64,000 bases of DNA, taken from NCBI GenBank assembly GCA_035380285.1, contig DAOSXE010000015.1, forward strand, positions 1,927 through 65,926, given 5' to 3'. This stretch comes from a bacterium. GTDB taxonomy: Bacteria > Auribacterota > Erginobacteria > Erginobacterales > DAOSXE01. A program made the position numbers and the translations under genes. The notes beneath the pieces are model-generated. The model did not search any database. It had not been told where the DNA came from and saw only the letters and a list, made by a program, of their open reading frames with translations. Below are positions 6,345 to 21,812 of the stretch, one piece after another (position 1 is the stretch's first letter; every line of letters begins with the position of its first letter).

Positions 6345-6373
6345 TTGACATTATGGAGGGAAAATGGTAATAT
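6345..6373 (+). promoter_or_regulatory. sigma70-like promoter (TTGACA-17 nt-TAATAT) upstream of the secreted repeat protein gene
   Basis: Consensus -35 TTGACA and -10 TAATAT with 17-nt spacer read directly; GGAGG Shine-Dalgarno a few nt before the ATG at 6412. Confidence 0.45.
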
Positions 6374-6411
6374 TTAAATCAGTCCATTCAATCCTTAACG
6401 GAGGCTCTTTC

Positions 6412-8775
6412 ATGCAAAAGTCTTGGTGGGCAGCAGCGGCGGCAACGGTCCTGATTCTCGCGCCCGGGGAATCCGGGGCGGCCGGCTACGTTCCCGACTA
6501 CTCCACCTACCTGGGCGGCGGCCTCAACGATACCGGCGGCGATATAGCCGTCGAAGACGGTTCCGTCTATGTCTGCGGAATGAGCGCGTCCGCCGATTTC
6601 CCCACCGTCGCACCCTACCAGGCGGGACTGCCCGGGTTCATCAACGCCGTCATCTCCCGTTTCGATTCGGACGGGAACCTGGTCTTTTCCTCCTACCTGG
6701 GAGGCTCGACCATCGACGCCGGTATCGGGGTCGCCGTCGATGAAGGGGCGGTCTGCTTGGTCGGCTATACGATGTCGTTCGATTTCCCCACCGTCGACCC
6801 CTGCCAAGCGAACCTGGAGGGTTTTCTGGACGCTTTCGTGGCTCGTTTCGACTCCGGGGGCGACCTGATCTTTTCTTCCTACCTGGGAGGGTCCGACGAA
6901 GAGCAAGCGTTCGGTGTCGCCGCCTCCGGCGGCGACATCTACATCGCCGGATTCACCACCTCCACCGACTTCCCCGTCGTCGGAGCATGGCAGCCCGCTC
7001 TGGCCGGGGGAACCGACGCCTTCGTCGCCCGGTTCCAATTCAACCCTTCCAGCAGTCTGGCCTATTCCTCCTACCTGGGAGGGACGGGAGACGACAACGC
7101 CGAGGGTATCGCGGTGGATGGAGGCGTGCTTGGAGTAGGCGGCTACACCGATTCCCTCGATTTTCCCACCAGCGACCCGCTGCAGGGCGCCCTGGCGGGA
7201 GGCTGGGACGGATTCGTTTCCGCTATCGACTTAAACCCCTCGGGCAGCCTGGTTTTTTCGTCGTACCTGGGCGGGAGCGAAGACGATTACGTCTTCAGGA
7301 TCGCCGCCGATAACGAAACCCTCTACCTGAGCGGATCGACGGATTCGACCGATTTTCCCACCGTCAACCCATTTCAGGCCTTCCTGGGCGGCAATGCCGA
7401 CGGCTTCGCCGGAGCCATCGCGCTCAACCCCTCGGCCGCCCTGATATTCTCCTCCTATCTGGGCGGCTCCGGCGACGACGACGCCACGGGGCTGGCCGTC
7501 GAAGACGGAGACATCATTCTGACCGGAGACACCGATTCCCAGGATTTTCCCACTGCCCATCCGTTCCAGCCGGGAACGGCCGGTGGCTTCGACGCCTTCG
7601 CCGCCCGCCTGGCTCTCTCCCCCGCCACGGCCTTGGTCTTTTCGTCATACCTGGGGGGAAGCGGGGACGACAGCGCCATGGGTGCCGCCGCCGAAGACGG
7701 CATCATCTATCTGGGGGGCTGGACCGAATCCACCGACTTCCCGACCGTCAACCCCTTCCAAGCCGCGGCGGCGGGAGGGGCCGATTTCTTCGTCTCCCGT
7801 CTGGTACCGGCCCCACCGACCCCGACCCCGACCGCCAGCACCGCACCCACCTGTTCCCCCAGCGCGACGCCGACGGCCGCGCCCTCCTTCTCTCCCACCC
7901 CCTTCCTCCCCTCACCCCCCACCCCCTCCCCGACCCCATACTCCTCGCCGACGCCCGCCGGGCCTCAGCCCACACCTTCCGCGGCACCGGCCACTCCTCC
8001 CTTCCTGGTTCTGGGCGCCGGCGATTATTCCGGCAACGGCCGGAGCGACATCGCCGTTTTCCGCCCCGCCACCGGGGCATGGAAAGTGCGCGGCCTGGGC
8101 ACCACCTACTTCGGCGGCGGCACCGACATCCCGGTTCCCGGAGATTACGACGGCGACGGGGTCACCGACGTCGCCGTCTTCCGCCCTTCCCGCGGTCTAT
8201 GGTGGGCCAAGGGAGTCACTCGGCTTTATTTCAACCTCGGAGACATCGGTCCCGATACCCGACCCGTTCCGGCGGATTACGACGGAGACGGCAGAACCGA
8301 TCCCGGAATCTTCACCGCCGGAGCGGCTCTCTGGGCGGTCAAGGGCGTCAGCCGATTCCACTTCGGCGCGGCCGGCGACCTGCCCGTGCCCGGAGATTAC
8401 GACGGAGACCTGGCCGCCGACGTTGCAGTCTGGCGCCCCGCCACCGGCCTCTGGGCGGTCCGGGGGATAACCAGAAAATTCTACGGGGTCGACGGAGACA
8501 TCCCCGTCCCCGGCACTTACACCTGGTACGGGGGCGGGGGCGGCCCCTTCCGAACCGAATTCGCGGTCTTCCGACCTTCCCGGGGAGTCTGGCTGATCAG
8601 CGGCGGTCCCAAATACTACTTCGGCGTGACCGGCGACCGTCCTCTTCCCGGTAAATACGTCGGGGGCGAACACGACACCCTCGGCATCTTCCGGCCCCCG
8701 ACCGGGCTTTGGGCCTTGCGAAGCATGACCAAGGTCTTCTACGGCCTTTCCGGAGACGATCCGGTTACCCGGTAA
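6412..8775 (+). CDS. secreted beta-propeller-repeat protein with Pro/Thr linker and C-terminal FG-GAP/VCBS-like repeats
   Basis: Signal peptide MQKSWWAAAAATVLILA; about eight repeats of ...FSSYLGGS...DFPT...; PT-rich linker; repeated GDYDGDG..DVAVFRP units; start placed at internal ATG of ORF 6364..8775. Confidence 0.7.
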   Translation: MQKSWWAAAAATVLILAPGESGAAGYVPDYSTYLGGGLNDTGGDIAVEDGSVYVCGMSASADFPTVAPYQAGLPGFINAVISRFDSDGNLVFSSYLGGSTIDAGIGVAVDEGAVCLVGYTMSFDFPTVDPCQANLEGFLDAFVARFDSGGDLIFSSYLGGSDEEQAFGVAASGGDIYIAGFTTSTDFPVVGAWQPALAGGTDAFVARFQFNPSSSLAYSSYLGGTGDDNAEGIAVDGGVLGVGGYTDSLDFPTSDPLQGALAGGWDGFVSAIDLNPSGSLVFSSYLGGSEDDYVFRIAADNETLYLSGSTDSTDFPTVNPFQAFLGGNADGFAGAIALNPSAALIFSSYLGGSGDDDATGLAVEDGDIILTGDTDSQDFPTAHPFQPGTAGGFDAFAARLALSPATALVFSSYLGGSGDDSAMGAAAEDGIIYLGGWTESTDFPTVNPFQAAAAGGADFFVSRLVPAPPTPTPTASTAPTCSPSATPTAAPSFSPTPFLPSPPTPSPTPYSSPTPAGPQPTPSAAPATPPFLVLGAGDYSGNGRSDIAVFRPATGAWKVRGLGTTYFGGGTDIPVPGDYDGDGVTDVAVFRPSRGLWWAKGVTRLYFNLGDIGPDTRPVPADYDGDGRTDPGIFTAGAALWAVKGVSRFHFGAAGDLPVPGDYDGDLAADVAVWRPATGLWAVRGITRKFYGVDGDIPVPGTYTWYGGGGGPFRTEFAVFRPSRGVWLISGGPKYYFGVTGDRPLPGKYVGGEHDTLGIFRPPTGLWALRSMTKVFYGLSGDDPVTR

Positions 8776-8925: not shown

Positions 8926-11019
8926 ATGACCAGAGAAATACCAATCGAAAAAGTCCGAAACATCGGGGTCATGGCCCACATCGACGCCGGGAAAACCACG
9001 GTGACGGAACGCATCCTTTTCTTCACCGGCCGCAGCCATAAGATCGGAGAGGTACACGACGGCGAAGCGACCATGGACTGGATGGTTCAGGAACAGGAAC
9101 GCGGGATCACCATCACCTCGGCGGCCACCACCGCCTTCTGGAAAGGCCATAGAATCAACATCATCGATACCCCGGGCCACGTCGACTTCACCGCGGAAGT
9201 CGAGCGTTCGCTCCGGGTCCTGGACGGGACCGTCGCTCTCTTCTGCGCGGTGGGCGGCGTCCAGCCCCAGTCGGAGACGGTATGGCGCCAGGCCGAGAAA
9301 TACATGGTCCCGCGTATCGCCTTCATCAACAAGATGGACCGGATCGGGGCCGATTTCGACGGCGTGGTGAAGGAAATCGAGGTGACCCTGGGGGCCAACC
9401 CGGTTCCGATCGTGATCCCGATCGGGGCGGGCGCGGAATTCGAAGGCGTCGTCGATCTGATCGAGATGAAGGCGATTTTCTACGACGAGGCGCCCGTCGG
9501 GGCGCGGATCCGGGAAGAAGCCGTTCCGGCCGAGCTCAGGGAAAGAGCGGAAGCCGCCCGGGAGTTTTTAGTCGAACGGGTCAGCGAACAGGACGACGCC
9601 CTCATGGAGAAATACGTGGGGGGACAGGAACCCTCCCGGGACGAACTGACGGCGGCCCTGCGCGGGGCCGTCATCCGCGGGGAGGTCATCCCGGTCCTCT
9701 GCGGCGCCGCGTTCAAGAATAAGGGCGTCCGCCGGCTGCTCGACGCCATCGTCGATCTTCTCCCCTCCCCCCTCGACCTGCCCCCGGCCATCGGCACCCG
9801 CAAGGAGGAGAACAAGGAGATCATCCGCCACCCTTCCGAGGACGCCCCGCTGGCCGCCCTGGCCTTCAAGATCATGGCCGACCGGCACCTGGGGAAACTG
9901 ACCTACCTGAGGGTCTACTCGGGGGTGCTCGCCAACGGGTCGTTCGTCTTCAACTCCAACCTGGAAACCAGGCAGCGGGTGGGGCGGATATTCCTCATGC
10001 ACGCCAACAAGCAGCAGGCGGTCGACAATTTGAGAGCCGGCGAGGTGGGGGCGGTGGTCGGCCTGGCCGAGACCAGGACCGGAGACACCGTCTGCGACGA
10101 GGCGCACCCCATCATCCTGGAAAATATCGATTTCCCCGCCCCGGTGATCGGGGTGGCCGTGGCCCCCGCCAGCCGGGCGGACCGGGATCGCCTGGCGGCG
10201 GCCCTGAGCCGCCTGGCCGACGAAGACCCCACCTTCACCGTCCGCACCGAAGAGGAGACGGGCGAAGTGATCATCTCGGGCATGGGCGAACTGCACCTCG
10301 AGGTCATCGTCGATCGGCTCAAGCGCGAATTCAACGTCGCGGTCGAAGTCGGGCAACCCCAGGTCGCCTACCGGGAGACGATCCTGGGGGATATCGAGCA
10401 CCGTTACCGCCACGTCAAGCAGACCGGAGGCCACGGCCAGTTCGCCGACATCATCTTCCGGATCGAGCCGGGCCAACCCGGCGAAGGCTTCCAGTTCTTC
10501 AACGAAATCCGGGGGGGGAACATACCCCGGGAATACATTCCTTCGATCGAACGCGGGGTGGTCGACGCCATGGCCCAGGGACCCTACGCCGGATTTCCCA
10601 TGGTCGACATCGTTTATACCGTCCTGGACGGATCGGCCCACGAAGTCGACTCCTCGGACATGGCCTTCCGCACCTGCGCCGCAGTCGGCTTCAAGGAAGC
10701 CTGCCGCAAGGCGGGCCTGCAGCTTCTGGAACCGATGATGAGCGTGGAGATCGTCACCCCCGAAGAATATATCGGCCCCCTGACCGGGAGCATCTGTTCC
10801 AAGCGGGGAAAGGTAACGAGCCTGATCCACAAGGCCACGCACTGCGTCCTCGCGGGCCAGGTGCCCCTGGCCAACATGTTCGGCTATTCCTCGGAACTGC
10901 GCACCATCACCAGCGGCCGCGGCGATTTTTCCATGCATTTCGAACACTACGCCGCCGTGCCCTTCTCCCTGGCGGAGGAGATCGTGGAACGACGGCGCCG
11001 GGAAGAGAAAATTCCCTGA
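8926..11019 (+). CDS. fusA: translation elongation factor G
   Basis: GTPase motifs [18 protein letters not shown] and full-length EF-G-like architecture (697 aa from internal ATG of ORF 8869..11019). Confidence 0.95.
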
Positions 11020-11088
11020 AGCGGCGGCCGCGAGGGGGCCCGGCGGAAAAAAACCGGCTCCCCGGGGGAGGGAACCGGTCGTGGAGCT
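10915..11088. repeat. 174-bp direct repeat, left copy (putative att site); spans last 105 nt of fusA plus 69 nt downstream
   Basis: Identical nucleotide-for-nucleotide to 21573-21746 (read directly). Confidence 0.9.
11047..11078 (-). terminator. duplicated copy of the tRNA-Ala intrinsic terminator inside the left repeat; positioned to terminate the island operon
   Basis: Same sequence as 21705-21736: on the minus strand an 8-bp stem (one G-U pair) followed by U7. Confidence 0.3.
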
Positions 11089-11281
11089 TTGTCCCTCGAT
11101 CTCAAACTTACTTTGACAACGAAAATGCGCCTACCGGAACATACGATTCGTGAAGTGTGGTTTACTTCACGACCGCGTGCGAGTATCGAGCCGCTCAGCA
11201 CGGGCGCGCAATAACCAGTGTCCTTTACCGTGCTGGCATATCATCACCGCTTTCCAGACCATAAGTACTCACTCGCTGAGT

Positions 11282-12310
11282 CTACGGCACCATCCTCGCG
11301 AAGTAAGGGTAGAGACGAGAGTACCGCTCGTAGTTGCTCATCTTGGCGATACTAACTTCCTCCGAGTCATCACCCTCAGTTAGATACCCTAGAGCGGTAA
11401 CACATACTGTCCCGTCTCCCGTTTCGGTCGGCAGAATTTCTTCGAGCTTCAGACGCTCCTTCGTGCTCAGCACCGGAACATCGATCTCATCGATCAAGCC
11501 CGAAGCAGTCACATAGAGGGGGCTCGTAGCCTTAAAGTGACCAAGCAACGCATCTCGGTTATTCTCCGGACAGAACACCCCTGTTATGCTTAACATAATT
11601 GTACCATCCGAGTACTTTGCCACCTGTAGCGGAAGAAAAGTCTTCGGCTTACTGCAAGCGCTCTCCAGAACCGATAGCACCATATGACTGAGCAACCATG
11701 GGAAGTTCTCCTCTTTGAAGTTCTCCCATGTGAACAGGTCATGGTCATAGGATACTTCTGCGACTGTCATGGCCTTCAGGTAATCATCTCGAAACTCATT
11801 GAAATCTTTCTTCTTGTAGGACGGAAGTATCTGCTGATGGCGCCGAAGCTTGACCTCCCTATATACCGGGGTCTCCGCCATGAGCGTTACCCGCAGCACA
11901 CTCCATTCAAGAGCCTGACGTGCGATACCGGACACTTCTGTCAACTCTTGTCGCCCAGCATCAACGTAATCCACCCACACAATCGTTGGTTTTTCGCTGG
12001 GAAACAGCGTTGACAGGAATTCCTCAAACCGACAGGACAGAAGTTTCACTTTTTTTGAACACTGGTGGAATTTCTGTCGCCTGTACGTCTCACCATCACT
12101 CTCAACCGACACCATGTCAAGGTTCGGGAACACGTTGCTCAGCAACCTGAAGTCTTCAAGAAACGGACCTCCAAACCCGATATACAAATGCTCTTTCAAG
12201 CTATGTGTGAGTTCAAACGTACGCAGCAACTCGACCAAGACCAAGCGATCAATAGCCTTGTTGGATCGCAAATGATATGCTGGATGTTTTGGTTTTCTGA
12301 GCCAGGTCAT
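11282..12310 (-). CDS. hypothetical protein, partner of the GHKL ATPase (4-nt overlap)
   Basis: 342-aa ORF with protein-like composition, last gene of the island gene array; no motif I can assign. Confidence 0.5.
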   Translation of the reverse strand: MTWLRKPKHPAYHLRSNKAIDRLVLVELLRTFELTHSLKEHLYIGFGGPFLEDFRLLSNVFPNLDMVSVESDGETYRRQKFHQCSKKVKLLSCRFEEFLSTLFPSEKPTIVWVDYVDAGRQELTEVSGIARQALEWSVLRVTLMAETPVYREVKLRRHQQILPSYKKKDFNEFRDDYLKAMTVAEVSYDHDLFTWENFKEENFPWLLSHMVLSVLESACSKPKTFLPLQVAKYSDGTIMLSITGVFCPENNRDALLGHFKATSPLYVTASGLIDEIDVPVLSTKERLKLEEILPTETGDGTVCVTALGYLTEGDDSEEVSIAKMSNYERYSRLYPYFARMVP

Positions 12311-13740
12311 TCCCTCGCCTCCTCAAGGATCACGTCAAAGCACCTCGCCCCAACATTGGATGGATTTCTGTCGGGGCTATCAAAGATGTACTGTGAAACA
12401 CGACGCACATCCCTGACAGCACGGGTAAAGACTATTCGCTCCGTCGTCTTCTTCTTGTCCGGTCGCGGTAACACAGGTTTGTACTGTTTGCCTTTCACGG
12501 CACCGCGCGTCGCAGTCATGTGCAATTTCAATGCTCGAGTTCGAATCTCGTCAAGCGTCGCTTTGTGTGTTGATCTCATCTCACATCGAGACTTGGCAAC
12601 GAGATCCTTACCTTTCCATTGGTTAGTGTACTGAGTGAACATCTTTGTTCCCTCAATCATCTTGTCACGCACCTGCAGGTAAAGAGGAGATGAGGCCTCG
12701 ATCCCTCTTTTGGTTGTCGTCATAGGCAAGAGATTCGCGTCATCCGCACTGAATATGACAATCCCCGATATCGCAATGAATTGCATGTGGTATTGCGGCA
12801 CTCCCGAAACTCCCCACCCAGTCAAAGGCGTCTTGTCACAGTAAACTACAGTTCGGTCGTTGCAGATCACAGTCCACCCGGCCTCTGCAGAAGAATACCG
12901 CTCCTTGTAGTTCTCAAGGCCTTCGTCTGCCTCCTCTCGGCTGGGGATCGGGCTCGTGAAACCCACAACAAGGAACACATCAACCCCATCGTGTTTCCCT
13001 TCGTAGATAAAGGGCATTATCGGGTGCTTCGATCTCACCGCTTCCTCCGCGAATAGCAGGCTTATGCTCCTAGGAGTTACCGCCTTTCCGTTGATACGGA
13101 CTTCAAACCCCTTGCCAATGATGTACGCATAGTGCGTCGCTACGGCCTCACGAAACGCTCTCTCAAAGGCTCCGGATTCGAATTCCGTACGCACGGATGA
13201 GTAAATACTTCTGATTTCAAGTGTGGTACCAAGAGTTTCTGCTGGCTTGATCGCGACTACGGGAATCAACCAGTCATCCTCTTTTGATATCCACTGCGGT
13301 GATAGCCGCAAACGGTAAGAACCGTCCTTCGCATGTGTTCTGATTGTGCAGTCCGCTCCCATCTTGAAGATGGCGCGCTTCATCCCAATTCCATACGTAC
13401 CGATGGTTTTTTTCCCCTTGTCTATGTCCGCTTTAATCCGTCCCATGCGAAAGGCGTAGTCATGGTATCTCACCGGTATCCCCCCACAGTTGTCTTCAAT
13501 CCTGAAGCGCGTCCCGTCAAACTCAATACTTGCCCAATATCCCTCGTATGGGAGACGCCTAGAAAGTTGCCGTTTCGTTTCAGCCCGCTGAATACCATCT
13601 ACACAGTTATCCAGCAGATCCAGGATCGCATCCTGAAGCTCGATGTCCCTTGTTAGCATATGTACGAAAAACGACTTGACCGGATTGGCCGGAATGTGTG
13701 GGATCTTCCTAAGATGCATCTGAGTAACCTCCTTATTCAA
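12307..13740 (-). CDS. MORC/MutL-like GHKL-superfamily ATPase (restriction/defence-associated type)
   Basis: Bergerat-fold motifs: N-box LDLLDNCVDG, G1 box EDNCGGIP, G2 box GTYGIGMKRAIF in the N-terminal ~200 aa; ~270 aa C-terminal region unassigned. Confidence 0.7.
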   Translation of the reverse strand: MNKEVTQMHLRKIPHIPANPVKSFFVHMLTRDIELQDAILDLLDNCVDGIQRAETKRQLSRRLPYEGYWASIEFDGTRFRIEDNCGGIPVRYHDYAFRMGRIKADIDKGKKTIGTYGIGMKRAIFKMGADCTIRTHAKDGSYRLRLSPQWISKEDDWLIPVVAIKPAETLGTTLEIRSIYSSVRTEFESGAFERAFREAVATHYAYIIGKGFEVRINGKAVTPRSISLLFAEEAVRSKHPIMPFIYEGKHDGVDVFLVVGFTSPIPSREEADEGLENYKERYSSAEAGWTVICNDRTVVYCDKTPLTGWGVSGVPQYHMQFIAISGIVIFSADDANLLPMTTTKRGIEASSPLYLQVRDKMIEGTKMFTQYTNQWKGKDLVAKSRCEMRSTHKATLDEIRTRALKLHMTATRGAVKGKQYKPVLPRPDKKKTTERIVFTRAVRDVRRVSQYIFDSPDRNPSNVGARCFDVILEEARE

Positions 13741-14914
13741 TAAACTCCTTCATGCGACTAAGTACGCTTTCTGCCAGAATCGGGCTGATGCTATTCCCGA
13801 TCTGTCTAAAGCTGTGCCACTTCGTCGAGTCGAACTGGAACCAGTCGGGGAAGCCCTGCAACCGGGCCGCTTCCCGGGGAGTAATGACGCGCGGCTCTGT
13901 GGGGTGAATTGGCCGAAGGGCTTGGTAGCTTCCATGCTCCGGGTCTGAGCCCGATCTTAGAGTCGGACAGAACCCCTTCCGTGCCAAACGCACAGCTCGC
14001 GAAGGCCCGTCAATGGCTCCCTCCGCCAGCTTGGCGAATCTCTCCAGAACGGTTTTCGTATGCCGTGTACCAAGACAGCCTGAAACGCGGTTCTCGTCTT
14101 GCAAGCGCCTAATCGCCTCCAGATCGCCAACACCCTCTGGTATCTTGTCGCGAATCCTTTCCCAAAACGGGCCGCTGTTGTGAGGCGTTACTGTGCGCCA
14201 ACTCTGGGCTTCTTGCTGCCACTCAGGACTGATCTTCTGGCGAAGACCTAGAAGTGCCGTCCCAACGTTGACTTTCGCGACGTTGGCAGGGGGCGCAAAA
14301 CAATCCTTCGTCAACCCGTTCGCACGCCCCACAACAATACCAATAAAGAACACTCGTTCTCGACTTGTTGCCGCGCCGAAATCCGATGCTTTGAGAATAA
14401 TAGGACCGAGGTTTATGTAGTTAGCCACTCTGGCCAACGCATTCGCGCGAACTTCGTCGAATTGAGAGTCCCGTATGCCTAGCACGTTCTCAGCAATGTA
14501 AAACGTGGGTTGAAGCTCCGCCACCAACCGAAAGAAGTGGTCGAACAGGTTGTTGCGCGCGTCATTTGGTTTGCGGCGACCGATTCGACTAAAACCCTGG
14601 CATGGCGGTCCACCGATAACCCCATCAATTCCGTTGATGTCGATTTGGGCCTTCTCAATAAGTTCTGCGCCTGTGAGTTCAGCAATGTTTGCATCAACGT
14701 ATTCGTATTTAGGGAAGTTCTTCTTGAAAGCGGATTTGGCTTGGGCATTGTTATCCACGGCTGCGGCAATCTGGAAGCCTGCGCGCGCTGCACCGAGAGT
14801 CAACCCTCCCACACCGCAGAACAAGTCAATGACCGTCGGCATACCTTCTGTTCCCTTCGCCGTTTTTCTGTTACCCGTGAAGCTCAGATCCGTCTCTATT
14901 CTTAACTGTATCAA
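13733..14914 (-). CDS. dcm: DNA (cytosine-5)-methyltransferase
   Basis: Motif I DLFCGVGG, motif IV catalytic PPCQGFS, ENV motif, C-terminal QIGNSIS. Confidence 0.9.
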   Translation of the reverse strand: MIQLRIETDLSFTGNRKTAKGTEGMPTVIDLFCGVGGLTLGAARAGFQIAAAVDNNAQAKSAFKKNFPKYEYVDANIAELTGAELIEKAQIDINGIDGVIGGPPCQGFSRIGRRKPNDARNNLFDHFFRLVAELQPTFYIAENVLGIRDSQFDEVRANALARVANYINLGPIILKASDFGAATSRERVFFIGIVVGRANGLTKDCFAPPANVAKVNVGTALLGLRQKISPEWQQEAQSWRTVTPHNSGPFWERIRDKIPEGVGDLEAIRRLQDENRVSGCLGTRHTKTVLERFAKLAEGAIDGPSRAVRLARKGFCPTLRSGSDPEHGSYQALRPIHPTEPRVITPREAARLQGFPDWFQFDSTKWHSFRQIGNSISPILAESVLSRMKEFIE

Positions 14915-15313
14915 TCACAGGCACTCCTCAAATCCATCTTCTGAAAGAATCGCTAGCCTTCCCCCTCTGCGAATCCAAGTGGCTATTCTCTTCACATCTC
15001 GGCCTTCACCAAACGCTGGGGTGCGCCTCCGAACGGCGCATTCCCAAATCACGAGAACACGCCAGCCCATATCTAGCAGTTTGCCTCGCACGCACAAATC
15101 TCGCAATCTGTTGCGTTTAATCTTCTTATTCCAAAACTGCTGATTGCTCTTTGCCTTCGGCCTTCGACCACATTCATGCCCATGCCAGTAGCATCCGTGG
15201 ACGAACACAACAGTCTTATGCCCGGCTAGAACAATGTCAGGTCGGCCCGGTAGATTCCTGGCGTGTAACCGATACCTAAAGCCTTCTCCAAACAGCGTCC
15301 TACGCACCTCCAT
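14915..15313 (-). CDS. vsr: very short patch repair endonuclease
   Basis: LPGRPDIV, FVHGCYWHGHEC and GWRVLVIWECA motifs; lies immediately 5-prime of dcm on the same strand with no gap. Confidence 0.85.
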   Translation of the reverse strand: MEVRRTLFGEGFRYRLHARNLPGRPDIVLAGHKTVVFVHGCYWHGHECGRRPKAKSNQQFWNKKIKRNRLRDLCVRGKLLDMGWRVLVIWECAVRRRTPAFGEGRDVKRIATWIRRGGRLAILSEDGFEECL

Positions 15314-15386
15314 TTCCGGGCCTGTGTTTTTCCCCGATTCGCAGCCATGATCTTGTGCCGAGTCTCAGCATTTACTCGGTCCACCA

Positions 15387-15653
15387 TCAAGACTTCCCTG
15401 CCCTTTTGTCCCGTTGATGCACTTTGTTATGACAAACGATGCACAATGTCTTCAGGTTCCCTTCAATATTTACGCTGCCCTTCACGTGATGCTCGATGTG
15501 ATGCAACTCCAAGTGTCGCGGATCGAACGGGTTCCATTCGTCGTGCGCCCACGCGCAAAACCGGCACTTGTCCCCGTCGCGCCGAAGCAACGGAAGCAAG
15601 CCGAACACACAGTTCAATCGCTTGTCCGACATAGAGATGTGGGGCGACCGCAA
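15387..15653 (-). CDS. small HNH endonuclease
   Basis: CRFC ... HHIEHHVKGSVNIEGNLKTLCIVCHNKVH (HNH motif with flanking Cys pairs); 5-prime end overlaps the end of the preceding gene so true start may be the internal Met (MSDKRL). Confidence 0.6.
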   Translation of the reverse strand: MRSPHISMSDKRLNCVFGLLPLLRRDGDKCRFCAWAHDEWNPFDPRHLELHHIEHHVKGSVNIEGNLKTLCIVCHNKVHQRDKRAGKS

Positions 15654-16720
15654 CCTGCAATCTCACCAACCGCCTGACCGACAACAGCGTATGTGTCATA
15701 GCTCGGTATCCGGAGCATTGGACCGGTGAAAGACGCACAAAGAAGAGGTACTCGTTCGCGTAGATGTGCAGACCCCAAATCTCCTCCGCCAATCTTCACA
15801 CCATGGTCAGCCACTACGAACACCCAATCGCCAGAACGAAGAAAATCCAAGAATGACTGTAGAAAAGCGTCAAACCGCTCAAGGGTTCGCCAGCACGCCG
15901 ATGCATCTCCCATGTGGGCATAACGGTCAAAATCCTCCAGATTGACCATGATAAATGCCTCGTCCTCCGCCGCTGTAACCTCTGCATTCAACAGCTCAAA
16001 GCACTGCTCGTCTCGCTCAGTTCGTACTGCCATATTCGCTGGCAAGGATAGGATTTCCTGCACCTTGCCGTTGACTATCCGTCTCCATCCAAGCGGCACG
16101 AATTTCTGCAGCAGAGACTCTCCATCGATCATCTGAAAGAAGTCACGCCGTAGTTCTTCAACCGGTTCTCCGCCACGCAACGGTCTTGCAAGCACCTTCT
16201 TCACGCATAACTCCGCTGATGCATCCAACATGCAGCGGAGTGCCTGTGCGACTTTATATAGACACTCACGGGGCACGACAATTTCATCTGCACTCACGAC
16301 CACAGTGCTGTCGAGCCCCCTATAGAGCATTATTGCCCCAGTTTGCAAATGTTCGAGCCACAACTCCGGGAGAACATCCCTGCCCCTTCCCTGTTTGTTG
16401 CCAATCAACTTAACTCCACAATTATTGCCAAGCTTCATCAGAACATCACGCGGTAGCGGTTCCGAGGGTATAGGGTGAGGTTGTTTAGTTATCCATCCGA
16501 ACATCTCGCGATGTCCTTCCTCCGATCCCACCGCGACTGACGCTTGTCTCATCACATGTCCACGACCCGTGACCGCAGCATCCAATCCCATATTAAAAAG
16601 GACTGGAAGAACGGAGATTTTGCGGCCGTACTGTTCGCACAGAGTCCCTAGGGTGCTGGTCTCACCGCCGTCAGGAGCAACTCCAAAACCATCTACAACG
16701 ATCACAAAAACGCGCGACAT
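15614..16720 (-). CDS. phosphopentomutase-like metalloenzyme (alkaline phosphatase superfamily)
   Basis: N-terminal FVIVVDGFG, central NLEDFD, C-terminal VVADHG ... HLRERVPLL, matching the DeoB-type motif order. Confidence 0.7.
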   Translation of the reverse strand: MSRVFVIVVDGFGVAPDGGETSTLGTLCEQYGRKISVLPVLFNMGLDAAVTGRGHVMRQASVAVGSEEGHREMFGWITKQPHPIPSEPLPRDVLMKLGNNCGVKLIGNKQGRGRDVLPELWLEHLQTGAIMLYRGLDSTVVVSADEIVVPRECLYKVAQALRCMLDASAELCVKKVLARPLRGGEPVEELRRDFFQMIDGESLLQKFVPLGWRRIVNGKVQEILSLPANMAVRTERDEQCFELLNAEVTAAEDEAFIMVNLEDFDRYAHMGDASACWRTLERFDAFLQSFLDFLRSGDWVFVVADHGVKIGGGDLGSAHLRERVPLLCASFTGPMLRIPSYDTYAVVGQAVGEIAGCGRPTSLCRTSD

Positions 16721-18534
16721 CAGGATTCAAATTTTCTGATTCGCAGGTTAACGAATTCAACAACTTTCCGCCAAAGACTGGCGATTGAAACTTTGCTGCC
16801 AAGCGAGAGTTCTCCTTCATACTGAAGAAGAAGAGGAATGATCGGTATAGTTACCTTTAGCTTGTCCGTAACAGAAATATCAGACTTCAGCACAGTGGAA
16901 GTAACGGAGACCCGTTCTGCGACCTTAGGCAAAATGGCTGAAGATTTTATGGTGTCACAGAGCGTCGCTAACACCTCTCTGGATTCTTCAAGCAGCGCTT
17001 TCATCTCCTCTGTTTCAGGCTCATGGTCCATCGCTGAGACGAATGACTCGACAACAACATCCCGGGCCGTTCTCGCCTCTGATACCGCCTCTGTAGCAGC
17101 GATCTTCCCTGCCATCTGAAGTTGTTCGTATTCCATGACAGACGCGACGACTCTGCCCCGTATCTCTAGGATATCTTCCTCAAGCCGCTGGATGCTTTTG
17201 GGTCGGTCCTCGACTCTCAGGGTATCTTCAGTGCGTTTGAGAAGGACGAAGTCCTTGCGTAGATTATCCCGAATATCTTCCAGCCTCTGTTTCTCTACCG
17301 GTATCCCGTTAGCCACTGTTTCGTCCTTCCTCTCTTCACAGGATCTGGGAACGCCGACGATTCTCCTCACATCGGTCAGAATATCCTTTGGGGCCGATGC
17401 CTCGGAGACAGCGCCAAGAATATGCACCAATGCTGTCACGCTCGAACGTATCCGCTCTGGGTCCGAAAGCAACCCGCGTCCCATTTGAATCATCACGTCC
17501 GCACCAAATGTCTCAACGTTCTGAAATATTTCTTCGAGGAAAATACTTCCCGAAGAAACAGCGAAGCATGGTCTGAGACCATACTGATCGCCCTGTAGCT
17601 TTTCGATTTCCTCCTTCAATATTGCTTGCTCATACGGAAAATCCTGGGTGAACGGCCCTGTGTAGACAGCATCTCCACCTGCAAGTCGCGAAAGTAGGGC
17701 AATTACCTGCTCCGCTAGGTAGTGCGTGCTCTTGCGCGTCAATACACCCCGGCCGATGTTGTTCACAACGAATGCTGTCTGACCATCACACGTATCGATC
17801 ACATGCCTGACAGCCGAAAAACCCATCGCGATACAGTTGAGGGTAAAACCACAAACGCCATGGCGCTGTCCATCCTCGACCAAGCGCAAGGATGTCTCCA
17901 CATCTGCGGTTGCATTCATGAAGTAGCCCAACTTGCGCCCCGTTTTCTCTTGGGCTGCAGTAACTACGGTTTCAATGGCCTGTGCGCGTTGTCCAAATGG
18001 ACTACAACTTGGGGACACGAGCAACTCGTCGTCAATCACGTAGTCAACACCACCCTCCAATGCTCTTTGCACTGTTGGGAGAATATCAGATAGACTCATG
18101 CGCAACCGCGGTTTCAGGATGAGCCCCAGAAGCGGCCGTTGGGAAACACCAAGAAGCTTCCTAATCCCTGATACACCATACCTTGGCCCCTTGTATTCAT
18201 CGAGGCAAACTTTGGGCAATGCCAGATCCACCACGGCAAATCGCTTCAGCGCTGAAAAGACAGAGCAATAGCACACACTCCCTAGGAGCATGGCGAGACC
18301 CGTACCAAGTCCAGCAGAACAAGGCGGCAGGGACAAAAGCACTTCAAGCTCGTTCTTGGATTGATCAATCTCACGAACATCGAGAATCTCTGGGTCTTCG
18401 TGAAATTCACAAGGCTCATCGGTACGTCGCAGCGGAATCGTTCCGGTGCTGCCTAGATCCATCGCAGCGAGGAGTTGCTTCAGCCCCTTCTCACGGTTTT
18501 CTAGGATCATGTGAAGTGTTACAGTTGCATGCAT
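16720..18534 (-). CDS. RuBisCO large-subunit-like protein (RLP) with Lys-to-Ile at the carbamylation position and a ~200-aa C-terminal extension
   Basis: [29 protein letters not shown] parallels the RuBisCO [30 protein letters not shown] signature; [10 protein letters not shown] aligns to [18 protein letters not shown] parallels GHYLNATA; C-terminal region is charged and coiled-coil-like. Confidence 0.7.
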   Translation of the reverse strand: [604 protein letters not shown]

Positions 18535-18543
18535 AATCGATCC

Positions 18544-19113
18544 TTAGTGCTTAACGTCAATGACTTTGCCATCTACAAGAAAGGTTCCGCTCGTCAAGTG
18601 GTACACCTGCGGTATTGCACTTCTCAGTTTTATCTTATCCTCTGAGAACAATTCTTTATCGATATCTGCTGCAACGACCAATCCAACAACAACGTGGTGG
18701 TTTCCTGCCTCCTTGTGCCATTGCAGCTTACATTCCAGATTGACTGCACATTCTGCTATCCGCGCGGGCTTCACCTTGTTCCTCGCATATGGTGTCAATC
18801 CCGTTTCCTCAAACTCATCCACGGCCGGCGGATACTCGTTAGCAGCCTGGTAAAGTTGAGTCAGAATCTTGCTCGTAGGAATTCCTACCACAAACTCGCC
18901 GGTCTTTGAGATATTCTTGAAGGTGTCAGACTTTGGCGAGATACCAAGCGCAACCATCGGGGGGCACGTCGAACACGGCGTGAACATAGCGTAGGGTGCC
19001 AAGTTCTTAACCCCCGCTGTGTCGACCGTTGACACGAGTACAACAGGGGACGGCTGAACCAAGTAGACAACTTTTGCAACTTTGTCTAAGACCTCGATCT
19101 TCTGATACTTCAT
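18544..19113 (-). CDS. flavin reductase-like (FMN-binding split-barrel) protein
   Basis: VVLVSTVD...NLAPYAMFTPCS..PPMVALGI...DTFKNISKTGEFVVGIP pattern typical of flavin reductase family. Confidence 0.7.
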   Translation of the reverse strand: MKYQKIEVLDKVAKVVYLVQPSPVVLVSTVDTAGVKNLAPYAMFTPCSTCPPMVALGISPKSDTFKNISKTGEFVVGIPTSKILTQLYQAANEYPPAVDEFEETGLTPYARNKVKPARIAECAVNLECKLQWHKEAGNHHVVVGLVVAADIDKELFSEDKIKLRSAIPQVYHLTSGTFLVDGKVIDVKH

Positions 19114-21059
19114 CTTGTATCTCCTCTCATCTGATCTACCATTTCAACCAAATCCGCAAAAACAAGGTCTGGCCGGGAATCATGCGTGCGTCGAGCCACA
19201 TCTTCAGCAGTACTTATCCCTCCAAGAACAAGGCAAGCCAACGCTCCAGCCTTTCTGGCTGCTGCTATGTCAGTATCGAGCGAATCCCCAATTACGGCTA
19301 CCTCTTGCGGTTTCATACCCATAAGATGAAGTAGAAGGCGAAGCGAGAAGTCATTTGGTTTCCCCACGACAAAGGGCGATTTGCCAGTTACTGTTTCAAT
19401 TGCAGCCACAATCCAGCCAGTTCCGGGCTTGTCCATACCCGGAGCAGCGAACACACGATCCCGGTCCGTGCATACGAACTCCGCACCCTTCAAAATTGCT
19501 CGCTGGGCTGCCACTAGGTCGGCATATATGAAATCCTTTGAATAGCCAACGACAACTGCGTCAATGTAACCAGTGTGATCATTGGCGGCGATATCCATGC
19601 CACCGCAGGCGAGCAACTCAGGTAGTGCTGGTGCTCCACCCAGCACCAAGCAACACCTGTATCCCTTAGTGCGGCAATACTCGGCAGCGGCAATAGTGGA
19701 CGTCATGATATGCCGCGGGTCCGCTATCACGGCCATCTGGCCGAGTTTGTCTGCTAACTCCTGCTGCCTTCTTACGCTCGTGTTTGTCAAGAAGCCAACT
19801 GTAACGCCAGATTGTCGCAAAATGCGAATGGCCGCGAGGCTGGCTTCTATCGGCTTGTCTCCTTTATAGAGAACACCGTCGAGATCCAGCACAACTCCCC
19901 GTTTTGAAGCCAGATCCCGCAGCTTATCCGTGGACTTTACTGGCACCCTCGGATGGCGTGGCTCGCGTGGGCGTGAACATTGGATCGTATAGAGCGACCT
20001 CACGGCGGTATTCCAGGATAGCTTGTACTCTTCATGGCCGCGCATGAAATCAACTTCCTGTAGCCCGTTATCGCAAGCCCATCGAATCGCTTCACCCAAT
20101 AGCACTAGCCCCGGAGAACAATCGTCTAACGCCAAATCAAAGGATGTGTTCCAGTCATAGTATCTGCCACCACGGATGAAGCCCATCCGATAAGCAACTA
20201 TGTTGCCGTTCAGAAGCAGATGAAAAAGACAGAAATTCCCGGTTCCGGCGAAATCTTTCGCAACGTCATGAATGAAGCCTCTGCGCCTTGTGTCGGCAAA
20301 TGCTTGGACTCCGTGAATACTGTCCCAACGAGTATCATGGAGATCAAATAGACGTTCGAGGGTTTCATGGTCGTAATCCCGGACAACTTGGAGTTCTACC
20401 TTGCCGCGGCGGCGCAGAGCCCGCATCTTGCGGTTCAGCATTCGCCGCCGGTTTCTTGTCCGTGACTTAAGATACTTATCCCAAGAACAACCAAGTTCTA
20501 TATACGGCGCATCCTCTGCCCTGACAATAACCGGTGATAGACCGCAATCTTGAAGTGCACGTGTTACAATGTGCAAGGTGACGTCATCTTGCCGTATGTT
20601 TTGTAGCCTTATTTCATCCCATTCCAAATGGTCGCACATCGCGGCTGCGATGCGGTCGATAGGATCACATGCAAAGGCCGAGAAGACTCCGCCTAGGTAG
20701 TCACTACAACAATCAGAAAGAAGCGTAAGGATCGTATGGGATCCTACGCGTTTGCGCATCAGAGGCAGAATGGCAAGAACGTCATCTCCCAGCGCGGCCC
20801 AGAAGATGGACAATTCCCTGTCAGAACCGAAGTGGCCCCACCAGTACGAAAGCCAACGTGGATCAACCGAGACTGGAAGGTTAGGCTGTTTTTCAAGGAT
20901 CTTAACCCAGTGAGGGTAGATTGCGGACCACTCCTCATTGCTCCTCACAACACCGACCTGGGCCCTACGATAGTCGCGTTCCGTCGACATGTAGTTACGC
21001 AGGGAATATTGCCAACTTGTCTGTGATGCATCCAGCCAGCTATCGCTGCACATCATCAC
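19110..21059 (-). CDS. fusion protein: large N-terminal FemAB/CelD-like acyltransferase-type domain (tentative) plus C-terminal HAD-IIA phosphatase domain
   Basis: C-terminal HAD motifs in order (VVLDLDGVLY, FLTNTS, GKP, IGDSLDTDI) are clear; N-terminal ~370 aa Trp-rich domain assigned by resemblance only. Confidence 0.65.
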   Translation of the reverse strand: MMMCSDSWLDASQTSWQYSLRNYMSTERDYRRAQVGVVRSNEEWSAIYPHWVKILEKQPNLPVSVDPRWLSYWWGHFGSDRELSIFWAALGDDVLAILPLMRKRVGSHTILTLLSDCCSDYLGGVFSAFACDPIDRIAAAMCDHLEWDEIRLQNIRQDDVTLHIVTRALQDCGLSPVIVRAEDAPYIELGCSWDKYLKSRTRNRRRMLNRKMRALRRRGKVELQVVRDYDHETLERLFDLHDTRWDSIHGVQAFADTRRRGFIHDVAKDFAGTGNFCLFHLLLNGNIVAYRMGFIRGGRYYDWNTSFDLALDDCSPGLVLLGEAIRWACDNGLQEVDFMRGHEEYKLSWNTAVRSLYTIQCSRPREPRHPRVPVKSTDKLRDLASKRGVVLDLDGVLYKGDKPIEASLAAIRILRQSGVTVGFLTNTSVRRQQELADKLGQMAVIADPRHIMTSTIAAAEYCRTKGYRCCLVLGGAPALPELLACGGMDIAANDHTGYIDAVVVGYSKDFIYADLVAAQRAILKGAEFVCTDRDRVFAAPGMDKPGTGWIVAAIETVTGKSPFVVGKPNDFSLRLLLHLMGMKPQEVAVIGDSLDTDIAAARKAGALACLVLGGISTAEDVARRTHDSRPDLVFADLVEMVDQMRGDTR

Positions 21060-21572
21060 TCCTGTTACTTGCTTTTTTCTTCCCGGGCGGCGAGATTCTC
21101 CTCAATCATGCGTGACACAATCCAAGAGAGCGAACGCTCCTCTTTCTCCGTCAACTCTTCCAAGATTTCTTAGACTTGCGGGGTAACTCGGACGCTCAGG
21201 AGTTTTATTTTCAGTTCAACCTTGTGCCTTTTCGTAGGGTGTACGACGTCATGCATTTGCATGCTGATTTTAATAATATATGATGTGTATGCTGTGTGAT
21301 GATAGTAGAAAGAAGAAGGATCCGATAAACTGCTTTCTGTATGCCCATTAGTCGATTGATTAGTCCACCCGTCAGATGCTATAAATTGAGGCGCAGGTCA
21401 CGGGACTTTTGGAGTATGCCCAGAAGGAACGTCTGCATCGTGGAGAAGTTTACGGAATTCATGACAGCATGGAAACCGGGCTGACCGGTTTTCAATGCAA
21501 TGATGGATCGGGGAGTCAAATGCGCTGCTCGCGTGGCTCCCTGACCGCTTCGGGCGTAACCCACTCGGCGGG

Positions 21573-21677
21573 GGCCGCGGCGATTTTTCCATGCATTTCG
21601 AACACTACGCCGCCGTGCCCTTCTCCCTGGCGGAGGAGATCGTGGAACGACGGCGCCGGGAAGAGAAAATTCCCTGA
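21573..21677 (+). pseudogene. duplicated 3-prime fragment of fusA (last 34 codons plus stop) created by the repeat; not an independent gene
   Basis: Sequence identical to fusA 10915-11019 but lacks the upstream ~2 kb of the gene. Confidence 0.7.
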
Positions 21678-21704
21678 AGCGGCGGCCGCGAGGGGGCCCG
21701 GCGG

Positions 21705-21736
21705 AAAAAAACCGGCTCCCCGGGGGAGGGAACCGG
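21705..21736 (-). terminator. intrinsic terminator directly downstream of tRNA-Ala
   Basis: On minus strand: ccgguucc / ggagccgg stem (8 bp, one G-U) with 9-nt loop followed by U7, beginning 4 nt after the tRNA 3-prime end. Confidence 0.5.
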
Positions 21737-21739
21737 TCG

Positions 21740-21812
21740 TGGAGCTGAGGGGATTCGAACCCCTGACCCCATGGCTGCCAGCCATGTGCTCTCCCAGCTG
21801 AGCTACAGCCCC
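21740..21812 (-). tRNA. tRNA-Ala (anticodon GGC)
   Basis: Reverse complement folds as cloverleaf: acceptor GGGGCTG/CAGCTCC with G3-U70 alanine identity pair, D-arm GCTC/GAGC, anticodon loop CTGGCAG, T-arm AGGGG-TTCGAAT-CCCCT; CCA not encoded. Confidence 0.9.

Follow-up and report, generated by a model that had tools for sequence, protein, structure and literature searches.

What does a pair of overlapping genes contribute to a bacterium when it lies directly behind a cytosine DNA methyltransferase gene? The question is raised by a 64,000-nucleotide stretch of contig DAOSXE010000015.1 (positions 1,927 to 65,926 of the forward strand; assembly GCA_035380285.1, from a bacterium of the Auribacterota), hereafter the window, in which two minus-strand open reading frames (ORFs) run in the same direction within positions 11282-13740. 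An earlier reading of the letters alone, referred to here as the original prediction, had proposed that they encode a MORC-like GHKL ATPase and a partner, which could serve as a restriction or effector component acting with the adjacent methyltransferase gene, dcm. Homology searches, structural models, and surveys of related loci lead us to a MORC-type ATPase and a partner with a methyltransferase fold, which together with dcm and vsr probably constitute an uncharacterized, apparently nuclease-free immunity module. The chances are about even that the pair itself is an effector that is driven by ATP, is keyed to DNA modification, and keeps invaders out but does not cut them.

Identity of the ATPase

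Both ORFs are real genes and not chance ORFs, because they have thousands of full-length homologs and the genomic island that carries them was assembled independently in five samples. The ATPase starts at the ATG at 13719, with AAGGAGG eight bases before it and directly after the dcm stop codon, and is 470 amino acids long. The TTG at 13740, from which 477 residues had been counted, is a longest-ORF artifact of the ORF caller, because the ATG with its AAGGAGG matches the 470-residue database entry P0001. The three Bergerat boxes quoted in the original prediction (LDLLDNCVDG, EDNCGGIP, and GTYGIGMKRAIF) are all present, and the GHKL motifs DxxDNxxD, DNCGG, GxxGxG(M)K, and GT are intact and also kept across distant subfamilies. 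Residues D34, D37, N38, D41, D76, G80, G107, G110, G112, K114, and T165 are conserved in 79/79 family members, as is the transducer lysine K337 in TTTKR (79/79). At the position of the catalytic acid, four residues ahead of the Mg-binding Asn, the family has Asp, or Glu in its haloarchaeal members.

Pfam matched the protein only to HATPase_c_3 (PF13589; residues 34-168), and a single-sequence search against PDB chains returned no match. An AlphaFold2 model built with 21 homologs (predicted local distance difference test score, pLDDT, 82) comprises a Bergerat ATP-binding GHKL domain (~1-200), an alpha+beta S5/transducer domain (~205-345), and a mainly helical, family-specific C-terminal region (~345-470). 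Compared with known structures, this model scored highest against MORC3 (20.9), SMCHD1 (19.1), and MORC2 (18.6 and 16.2), followed by TRAP1 (15.7) and, lower, by phage topoisomerase II (15.1), ParE (14.9), and MutL (14.7). The transducer aligns with those of MORC, MutL, and topoisomerase proteins (282-309 residues aligned), and the C-terminal region found no match in the structure comparison. A Foldseek search of the ATPase against the PDB returned the same set of GHKL proteins with no resolution among them, and the three best PDB matches of the family profile were MORC4 and MORC3, at marginal E-values of 0.004-0.015.

MORCs have been defined by the S5-domain motif GhXhhpXXRhl (Iyer, Abhiman and Aravind 2008, PMC2292703). 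The S5 motif that is most conserved in the present family, GW[TY][VI]xCN[DGN]RxV, fits it in 12 of 21 close and 12 of 14 distant members; this is a pattern fit and not a residue alignment, and by our own estimate it would arise by chance in fewer than 1% of proteins. The window ATPase, with GWTVICNDRTV, deviates once, by a T at one 'h' position. The additions of paraMORC2-5 (ExxxH in S5, a C-terminal PD-(D/E)xK, a TIR, or an HxH C-terminal domain) were not found in the ATPase, nor did Pfam detect the C-terminal dimerization/endonuclease domain of MutL, which is also not its best similarity. With all GHKL motifs intact and MORC3, SMCHD1, and MORC2 leading the model comparison, the MORC-like assignment of the original prediction holds, and we regard a MORC-type ATPase, more similar to MORCs than to the remaining GHKL clades, as well supported. 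A MutL or housekeeping identity is excluded: the protein is not MutL, gyrase, or a kinase.

Identity of the partner

The partner, previously described as having no assignable motif, matches PF20553 (Methyltransf_35) over residues 9-340 of its 342 (E-value 2.4e-53; 181.9 bits against a cutoff of 27) and has a class I S-adenosylmethionine (SAM) methyltransferase fold. Its length and its 4-nucleotide (nt) ATGA overlap with the ATPase gene are as first described, and a Shine-Dalgarno sequence, GAGGAGG, lies ahead of it. The partner model (pLDDT 89) has a seven-stranded class I methyltransferase core, complemented by a basic helix at the N-terminus, a helical insertion, and a further C-terminal subdomain. 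Motif I reads Y43-x-G45-x-G47-G48, with G48 and E70 each conserved in 79/79 members and their placement at strands 1 and 2 taken from the model; further conserved residues are WxDY after strand 4, Y233, D235, and the basic R15, K18, R22, and R78. Conservation of the motif I glycines, E70, WxDY, Y233, D235, and the basic residues suggests an active SAM enzyme with a polyanionic substrate. PF20553 is described as a 'putative O-methyltransferase', and NCBI calls relatives 'O-methyltransferase'; the 'O-' in this label should be read as putative.

The partner family comprises ~1,600 clusters at 50% identity (E <= 1e-10), and all but a few of the best 150 relatives are stand-alone proteins of ~300-345 amino acids. 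In PHROGs, the ATPase and partner families are both listed under 'unknown function'.

Pairing of the two genes

The genome survey covered the best 80 of 524 matches from 185,579 species-representative genomes. A PF20553 gene directly follows the ATPase gene in 80/80 of these loci, in 39/40 loci from IMG/VR, and in 53/55 metagenome loci, which represent a subfamily ~25% identical to the window's partner. The pairing is kept at 27-30% identity, as in Sinorhizobium meliloti, a Pf phage, and the second pair of locus L057, and the 4-nt overlap recurs at the junction in most of 78 loci. Moreover, pairwise identities of the ATPase and the partner correlate closely (r = 0.91), whereas each correlates with those of Dcm at only ~0.33.

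Disruptions of the partner gene are isolated (an IS66 in S. meliloti, locus L120, and E. coli GF43). A preferential decay of this gene, of the kind seen for toxic restriction genes, is not supported, as a disruption also occurs in dcm (E. coli NMBU-W10C18). Variations in copy number were also observed: locus L057 (6794-13207) holds two complete, convergent ATPase-partner pairs with one common Dcm-Vsr, and an extra, longer GHKL paralog (537-563 amino acids) flanks the module in L066 (7962-13452) and L070 (5596-11772).

Linkage to DNA-modification genes

Dcm marks host DNA with 5-methylcytosine (5mC), and Vsr repairs the T:G mismatches that result from 5mC deamination; in other lineages, an HhH-GPD glycosylase takes the same place. 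The window's Dcm was identified by PF00145 (E-value 8e-56), TIGR00675, PADLOC MTase_II (298 bits), and the PCQ, ENV, and GNS motifs of its translation, and its Vsr by PF03852 (E-value 4e-21), TIGR00632 (110 bits, above cutoff), PADLOC Vsr, and the motif FVHGCYWHGH. The placement of the pair downstream of dcm was correct as first stated: dcm lies directly upstream of the ATPase gene, 13 nt from its start, and abuts the stop codon of vsr, which is further upstream.

This linkage is general, as the original prediction had anticipated. A C5 methylase adjoins the pair in 73/80 genome loci (directly upstream and co-directional in 58 of the 70 scored), in 38/40 IMG/VR loci, and in 20 of the 28 metagenome loci with room on both sides; of the remaining eight, six show Dnd or other genes for modification, and in two nothing of the kind is present. 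A Vsr homolog accompanies the module in 39/80 genome loci. In 11/80 (L002, L013, L015, L020, L037, L040, L042, L044, L046, L060, and L073), an HhH-GPD glycosylase is found instead, and the Dcm beside it belongs to a second lineage whose identity to that of the window is ~36-46%. This is consistent with Vsr and the glycosylase being alternative repair functions for 5mC deamination.

Where no C5 methylase is involved, the pair is found with other self-marking systems. On a Microvirga plasmid, it lies inside a DISARM operon in the order drmD-drmMI-pair-drmA-drmB and overlaps drmMI by 4 nt. A metagenome locus (L186, 1303-8469) has dndB-pair-dndC-dndD-dndE as one operon with overlapping codons; a patatin-like gene and an ABC ATPase gene were noted downstream of it. 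DndC lies within 7 kb of the pair in eleven metagenome loci. In Aliarcobacter, the pair follows a GmrSD-family gene beside dndCDE, and in Haloarchaeobius, it sits between pbeABCD and dndCDEA.

Genomic settings

Pairs recur at sites known for defense genes, namely the P2 gpQ-gpA locus, the Pf accessory region, and DISARM and Dnd/Pbe neighborhoods. In E. coli P2 prophages, the ATPase and partner genes, with dcm convergent to them, are located between those for the portal gpQ and the replication protein gpA, which is the tin/old phage-exclusion site and a defense hotspot according to Rousset et al. (PMC9122126). This triad (WP_029401227, WP_029401228, and WP_029401229, as in strain 7/2 or FDAARGOS_448) is present in 49 of 5,426 complete E. 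coli genomes, 46 of the 49 carrying one near-identical variant. In two such prophages (L137 and L138, ~11161-11393), the 3' ends of dcm and the partner gene overlap by ~50 nt, an arrangement that could provide antisense or transcriptional-interference control, as in some restriction-modification (R-M) systems.

In Pseudomonas aeruginosa, the pair is accessory cargo of the Pf phage PfAC20, where PADLOC saw only a 'cytosine methyltransferase' and the authors of that work scored an incomplete system. Pf phages were rejected as the main vehicle, since Pf core genes occur in only 2/40 IMG/VR loci. In Halorubellus, the region around the pair contains an integrase and a Cdc6-like gene and resembles a provirus. 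One solitary cyanobacterial pair (L063, 2951-4302) may be cargo of a Tn7-like element, because TniQ and TniB genes adjoin it.

Searches for nucleases and known defense systems

The original prediction had envisaged a nuclease fold (PD-(D/E)xK, HNH, or another) in the partner or in the C-terminal part of the ATPase. Neither Pfam nor structure comparison detected a nuclease domain or fold in either protein; the partner has a methyltransferase fold, and the C-terminal region matches nothing. Clustering of the neighboring ORFs in the 80 loci returned only the four module genes and the glycosylase as recurrent families. In addition, a Pfam survey of 117 flanking ORFs revealed no recurrent nuclease (HNH_2 four times, RE_Eco29kI once), and no more than ~5 of 78 related loci have an HNH_2 or Eco29kI-type enzyme beside them. 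A conserved neighboring nuclease was ruled out by these two analyses. The proposed restriction or effector role stays plausible given the P2, Pf, DISARM, and Dnd positions of the pair; the expected nuclease, within either protein or nearby, was not borne out.

Against PADLOC-DB v2, the ATPase and the partner matched no system hidden Markov model (HMM), and matches were confined to neighboring genes (MTase_II, Vsr, and a weak ZorE-like HNH). In NCBIfam, a sub-threshold MzaB motif match was obtained.

Proposed mechanism and alternative explanations

We propose that vsr, dcm, and the ATPase and partner genes would form an immunity module that moves horizontally and is keyed to DNA modification, in which the ATPase and its PF20553 partner would act as an obligate complex and supply the effector half. 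This is the simplest reading of a cassette that accompanies self-marking systems, travels in sites of phage exclusion, and encodes two proteins that both look enzymatically intact. The ATPase may be an ATP-driven, dimerizing DNA clamp like MORC and MutL proteins, and the partner would bind SAM and either check the mark or methylate a polyanionic target. The complex would engage DNA that lacks the cognate mark and block its propagation without a nuclease of its own, in a manner resembling the non-cleaving behavior reported for PbeABCD. A non-cleaving mechanism is favored because the pair has no nuclease. The same two-gene cassette is also built into other self-marking systems, namely Dnd phosphorothioation and the DISARM methylase.

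Several points weigh against this proposal. How homologous pairs would respond to 5mC, phosphorothioate, and N6-adenine marks alike is unexplained. As no nuclease was found, the label 'effector' derives wholly from genomic context. The Asp in place of the Glu usual in GHKL enzymes suggests that hydrolysis is retained, possibly at a slow rate. The weak co-evolution with Dcm (r = 0.33) argues against a tight complex that includes Dcm. Furthermore, seven cyanobacterial loci have the pair with no modification gene in their flanks (up to 8 kb), and in E. coli NMBU-W10C18, the pair is intact but the annotation splits the linked dcm, which may reflect a sequencing error or compensation by the host Dcm.

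A different role would be that of an accessory to the modification step, which we consider possible, if unlikely. Such an accessory would help, target, or restrain the neighboring enzyme, for instance by loading it on DNA at the expense of ATP or by keeping the methylation of incoming DNA in check, or it would add a second methyl mark. The pair's place directly beside or inside modification operons speaks for it: after dcm (58/70), in 4-nt overlap after drmMI, and between dndB, a regulator in Dnd systems, and dndC. The resemblance of the partner to an active SAM enzyme and the lack of a nuclease also fit. However, two modification functions with no restriction partner would leave the P2 and Pf exclusion hotspots unexplained, pairs occur alone in cyanobacteria, and Dcm lineages have been swapped freely relative to the pair (r = 0.33). 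To our knowledge, Dcm, Dnd, and MmeI-type enzymes moreover function elsewhere without such helpers.

A further scheme, in our view distinctly unlikely, would make the pair an immune effector of a new kind that needs no nuclease: a MORC clamp would load on unmarked DNA and the SAM partner would methylate there, so that foreign DNA is silenced or arrested and not cut. The methyl lesion would be replication-blocking or otherwise toxic, and its site could be a base, a phosphate, or some associated factor. Such a mark-agnostic cassette would work with 5mC, phosphorothioate, or N6-methyladenine, and it might be an antecedent of the link between MORCs and DNA methylation in eukaryotic silencing.

It is more improbable still that the pair is an abortive-infection or toxin module, in which infection, sensed by the ATPase, would license methylation by the partner of RNA (tRNA or rRNA) or of some other essential molecule, with Dcm only co-traveling or serving as an antidote-like safeguard. 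The invariant basic residues R15, K18, R22, and R78 would suit an RNA substrate, and prophage moron positions often hold abortive-infection systems, but this would not explain why the pair is almost constantly linked to genes that mark DNA by three chemistries. Lastly, the idea that the ATPase is a portable MutL substitute stimulating the co-encoded Vsr, with the partner an unrelated passenger, draws on the stimulation of E. coli Vsr by MutL (cited in PMC2292703), on the operon shared with Vsr in the window, and on the GHKL-transducer architecture common to MutL, yet it is hardly credible given that 41/80 loci have no Vsr and 11 have a glycosylase in its place, that the pair also accompanies Dnd and DISARM, where no 5mC is made, that MutL ranks below MORC, SMCHD1, Hsp90, and topoisomerase II and its C-terminal domain is absent, and that the tight co-evolution of the partner with the ATPase shows it to be no passenger.

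The operon and its island

The features of the locus are collected in Table 1. The four module genes lie within a 10,658-bp island of ~52% GC in a genome of ~65% GC, inserted between fusA and tRNA-Ala(GGC), with its core at 11089-21572 and no integrase inside. The core is flanked by a 174-nt repeat in which the 3' end of fusA and the terminator of the tRNA are duplicated. The hairpin behind the partner gene, the probable operon end, sits inside this repeat and duplicates the tRNA-Ala terminator at 21710-21738. An assembly artifact was ruled out, as the identical insertion was recovered from five independent assemblies. Whether the small HNH gene upstream of vsr belongs to the system is uncertain: of the 80 related loci, the closest relative (L001) has a copy 68% identical near its module, and the other 79 have none.

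Table 1. Features of the module and its island (window positions)
Feature	Position	Strand	Remark
Vsr very-short-patch (T:G mismatch) endonuclease	14915..15313	-	first gene of four-gene operon
Dcm-type C5 cytosine DNA methyltransferase	13733..14914	-	presumed self-marking enzyme
MORC-type GHKL ATPase, 470 aa	12307..13719	-	
PF20553 (Methyltransf_35) partner, 342 aa	11282..12310	-	
Small HNH protein (81-88 aa)	15387..15653	-	just upstream of vsr; PF01844, E-value 3e-6
Intrinsic-terminator-like hairpin and T-run	11052..11080	-	12-bp stem, 7 GC pairs; downstream of partner gene
174-nt perfect direct repeat, left copy	10915..11088	.	3' end of fusA and intergenic
174-nt perfect direct repeat, right copy	21573..21746	.	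overlaps tRNA-Ala(GGC) 3' end by 8 nt

The remainder of the island (15614-21059, minus strand) is a dense co-directional gene set that occurs beside the module in 0/80 related genome loci. It encodes a GNAT (FemAB-like) and HAD-IIA fusion of 649 amino acids akin to 2-phosphoglycolate phosphatases, a flavin reductase, a phosphopentomutase-like protein, and a RuBisCO-like protein of 604 amino acids, in which Ile replaces the carbamylated Lys (GGVDYVIDDE) and which has a C-terminal extension of ~220 residues. These genes could serve nucleoside or pentose-phosphate metabolism, or they could be a second conflict system, and no such RuBisCO-like cluster was found in viral contigs. Just outside the island, an 803-residue, secreted-looking protein (6364-8775, plus strand), unrelated to the present finding, combines many beta-propeller-like repeats (SSYLGG...DFPT) with a linker rich in Pro and Thr and with C-terminal repeats resembling FG-GAP/VCBS.

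Significance and comparison with known systems

The open literature, searched for PF20553, GHKL with O-methyltransferase, prokaryotic MORC, and HATPase_c_3 in defense, yielded no description of the module, supplementary tables and non-open papers lying outside this search, and no report of measured phage or plasmid protection by the family was found. Neither GHKL nor MORC proteins are named in the 2024 reappraisal of Dnd systems, and the main texts of the two P2/P4 hotspot papers contain no mention of the pair genes.

If the pair is an effector, a widespread and nuclease-free defense module would be added to those known, with matches in 524 of 185,579 species-representative genomes, ~1,600 clusters at 50% identity, a presence in ~1% of complete E. 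coli genomes, and coupling to three chemically different self-marks. A non-cleaving mode of methylation- or phosphorothioate-based immunity would then become testable in E. coli. Bona fide MORC-type ATPases would also gain a tractable bacterial context beside DNA methylation, with relevance to how MORC silencing arose in eukaryotes. Since PADLOC scores such loci as incomplete R-M systems or orphan methylases, as for PfAC20, defense inventories under-count them. The module is an experimentally accessible candidate for a defense function.

Systems of the same general kind include several that are linked to self-marking. PbeABCD is reported to stop virus replication without DNA cleavage and to pair with phosphorothioation or methylases (PMC6459918), and the present module is likewise paired with a self-marking system, as are PbeABCD, DndFGH, and DndI/SspE. 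It shows no sequence relationship to them (no PADLOC match), and the ATPases of these phosphorothioation-linked modules are of the SF2, ABC, DUF262, or HerA kinds; most of the modules contain nucleases. The pair is not PbeABCD, which comprises an HKD-SF2 helicase, a small protein, a CxC ABC ATPase, and DndE; nor is it DndI, which is DUF262-HNH; and MANTIS/MADS is unrelated.

Ambrosia (bioRxiv 10.1101/2025.09.30.679545) consists of a methyltransferase, an HATPase, a receiver (REC) protein, and an HNH protein, and experiments have demonstrated its activity against phages; its behavior is not that of a classical type II system. Our module shares with it, and with the C5-MTase/HEF_HK/Response_reg_2/Vsr clusters (PMC8011034), a gene order in which a methylase is followed by a GHKL ATPase and then by a small partner of Rossmann-like type; Vsr or HNH may or may not be present. 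It differs in that only PF13589, and no HEF_HK, was found in the ATPase, there is no XRE regulator, and the partner has a SAM-methyltransferase fold where theirs has a receiver domain with a winged helix-turn-helix. HNH, a component of Ambrosia, is present here only in the window island and the closest relative. VcSduA/paraMORC3 (GHKL-Shedu; PMC12137116), a GHKL-containing system with demonstrated anti-phage activity and the precedent for defense under GHKL control, is a single polypeptide with a C-terminal DUF4263 PD-(D/E)xK nuclease, whereas the pair has no nuclease domain.

In contrast to eukaryotic MORC2, MORC3, and SMCHD1, to which its identity is 15-18%, the ATPase lacks CW, coiled-coil, and hinge regions, has another C-terminal region, and is encoded in a bacterial operon. 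A C5 methylase with an adjacent Vsr on a mobile island recalls classical Dcm-Vsr type II R-M systems, from which the module differs by having no recognizable restriction endonuclease. Iyer et al. (2008; PMC2292703) predicted prokaryotic MORC and paraMORC proteins in R-M systems, with cytosine methylases, Vsr, and a helicase-less minority. The ATPase agrees with those MORCs in having a GHKL domain with intact motifs and an S5 domain, in its cytosine methylase/Vsr neighborhoods, and in its sporadic, laterally mobile distribution; the SF2 helicase and nuclease partners that are central there are both missing here. The methyltransferase-fold partner and the embedding in Dnd and DISARM operons are not reported in that work. 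Neighborhoods of MORC, methylase, and Vsr were already predicted in 2008, without a description of the ATPase-partner pair.

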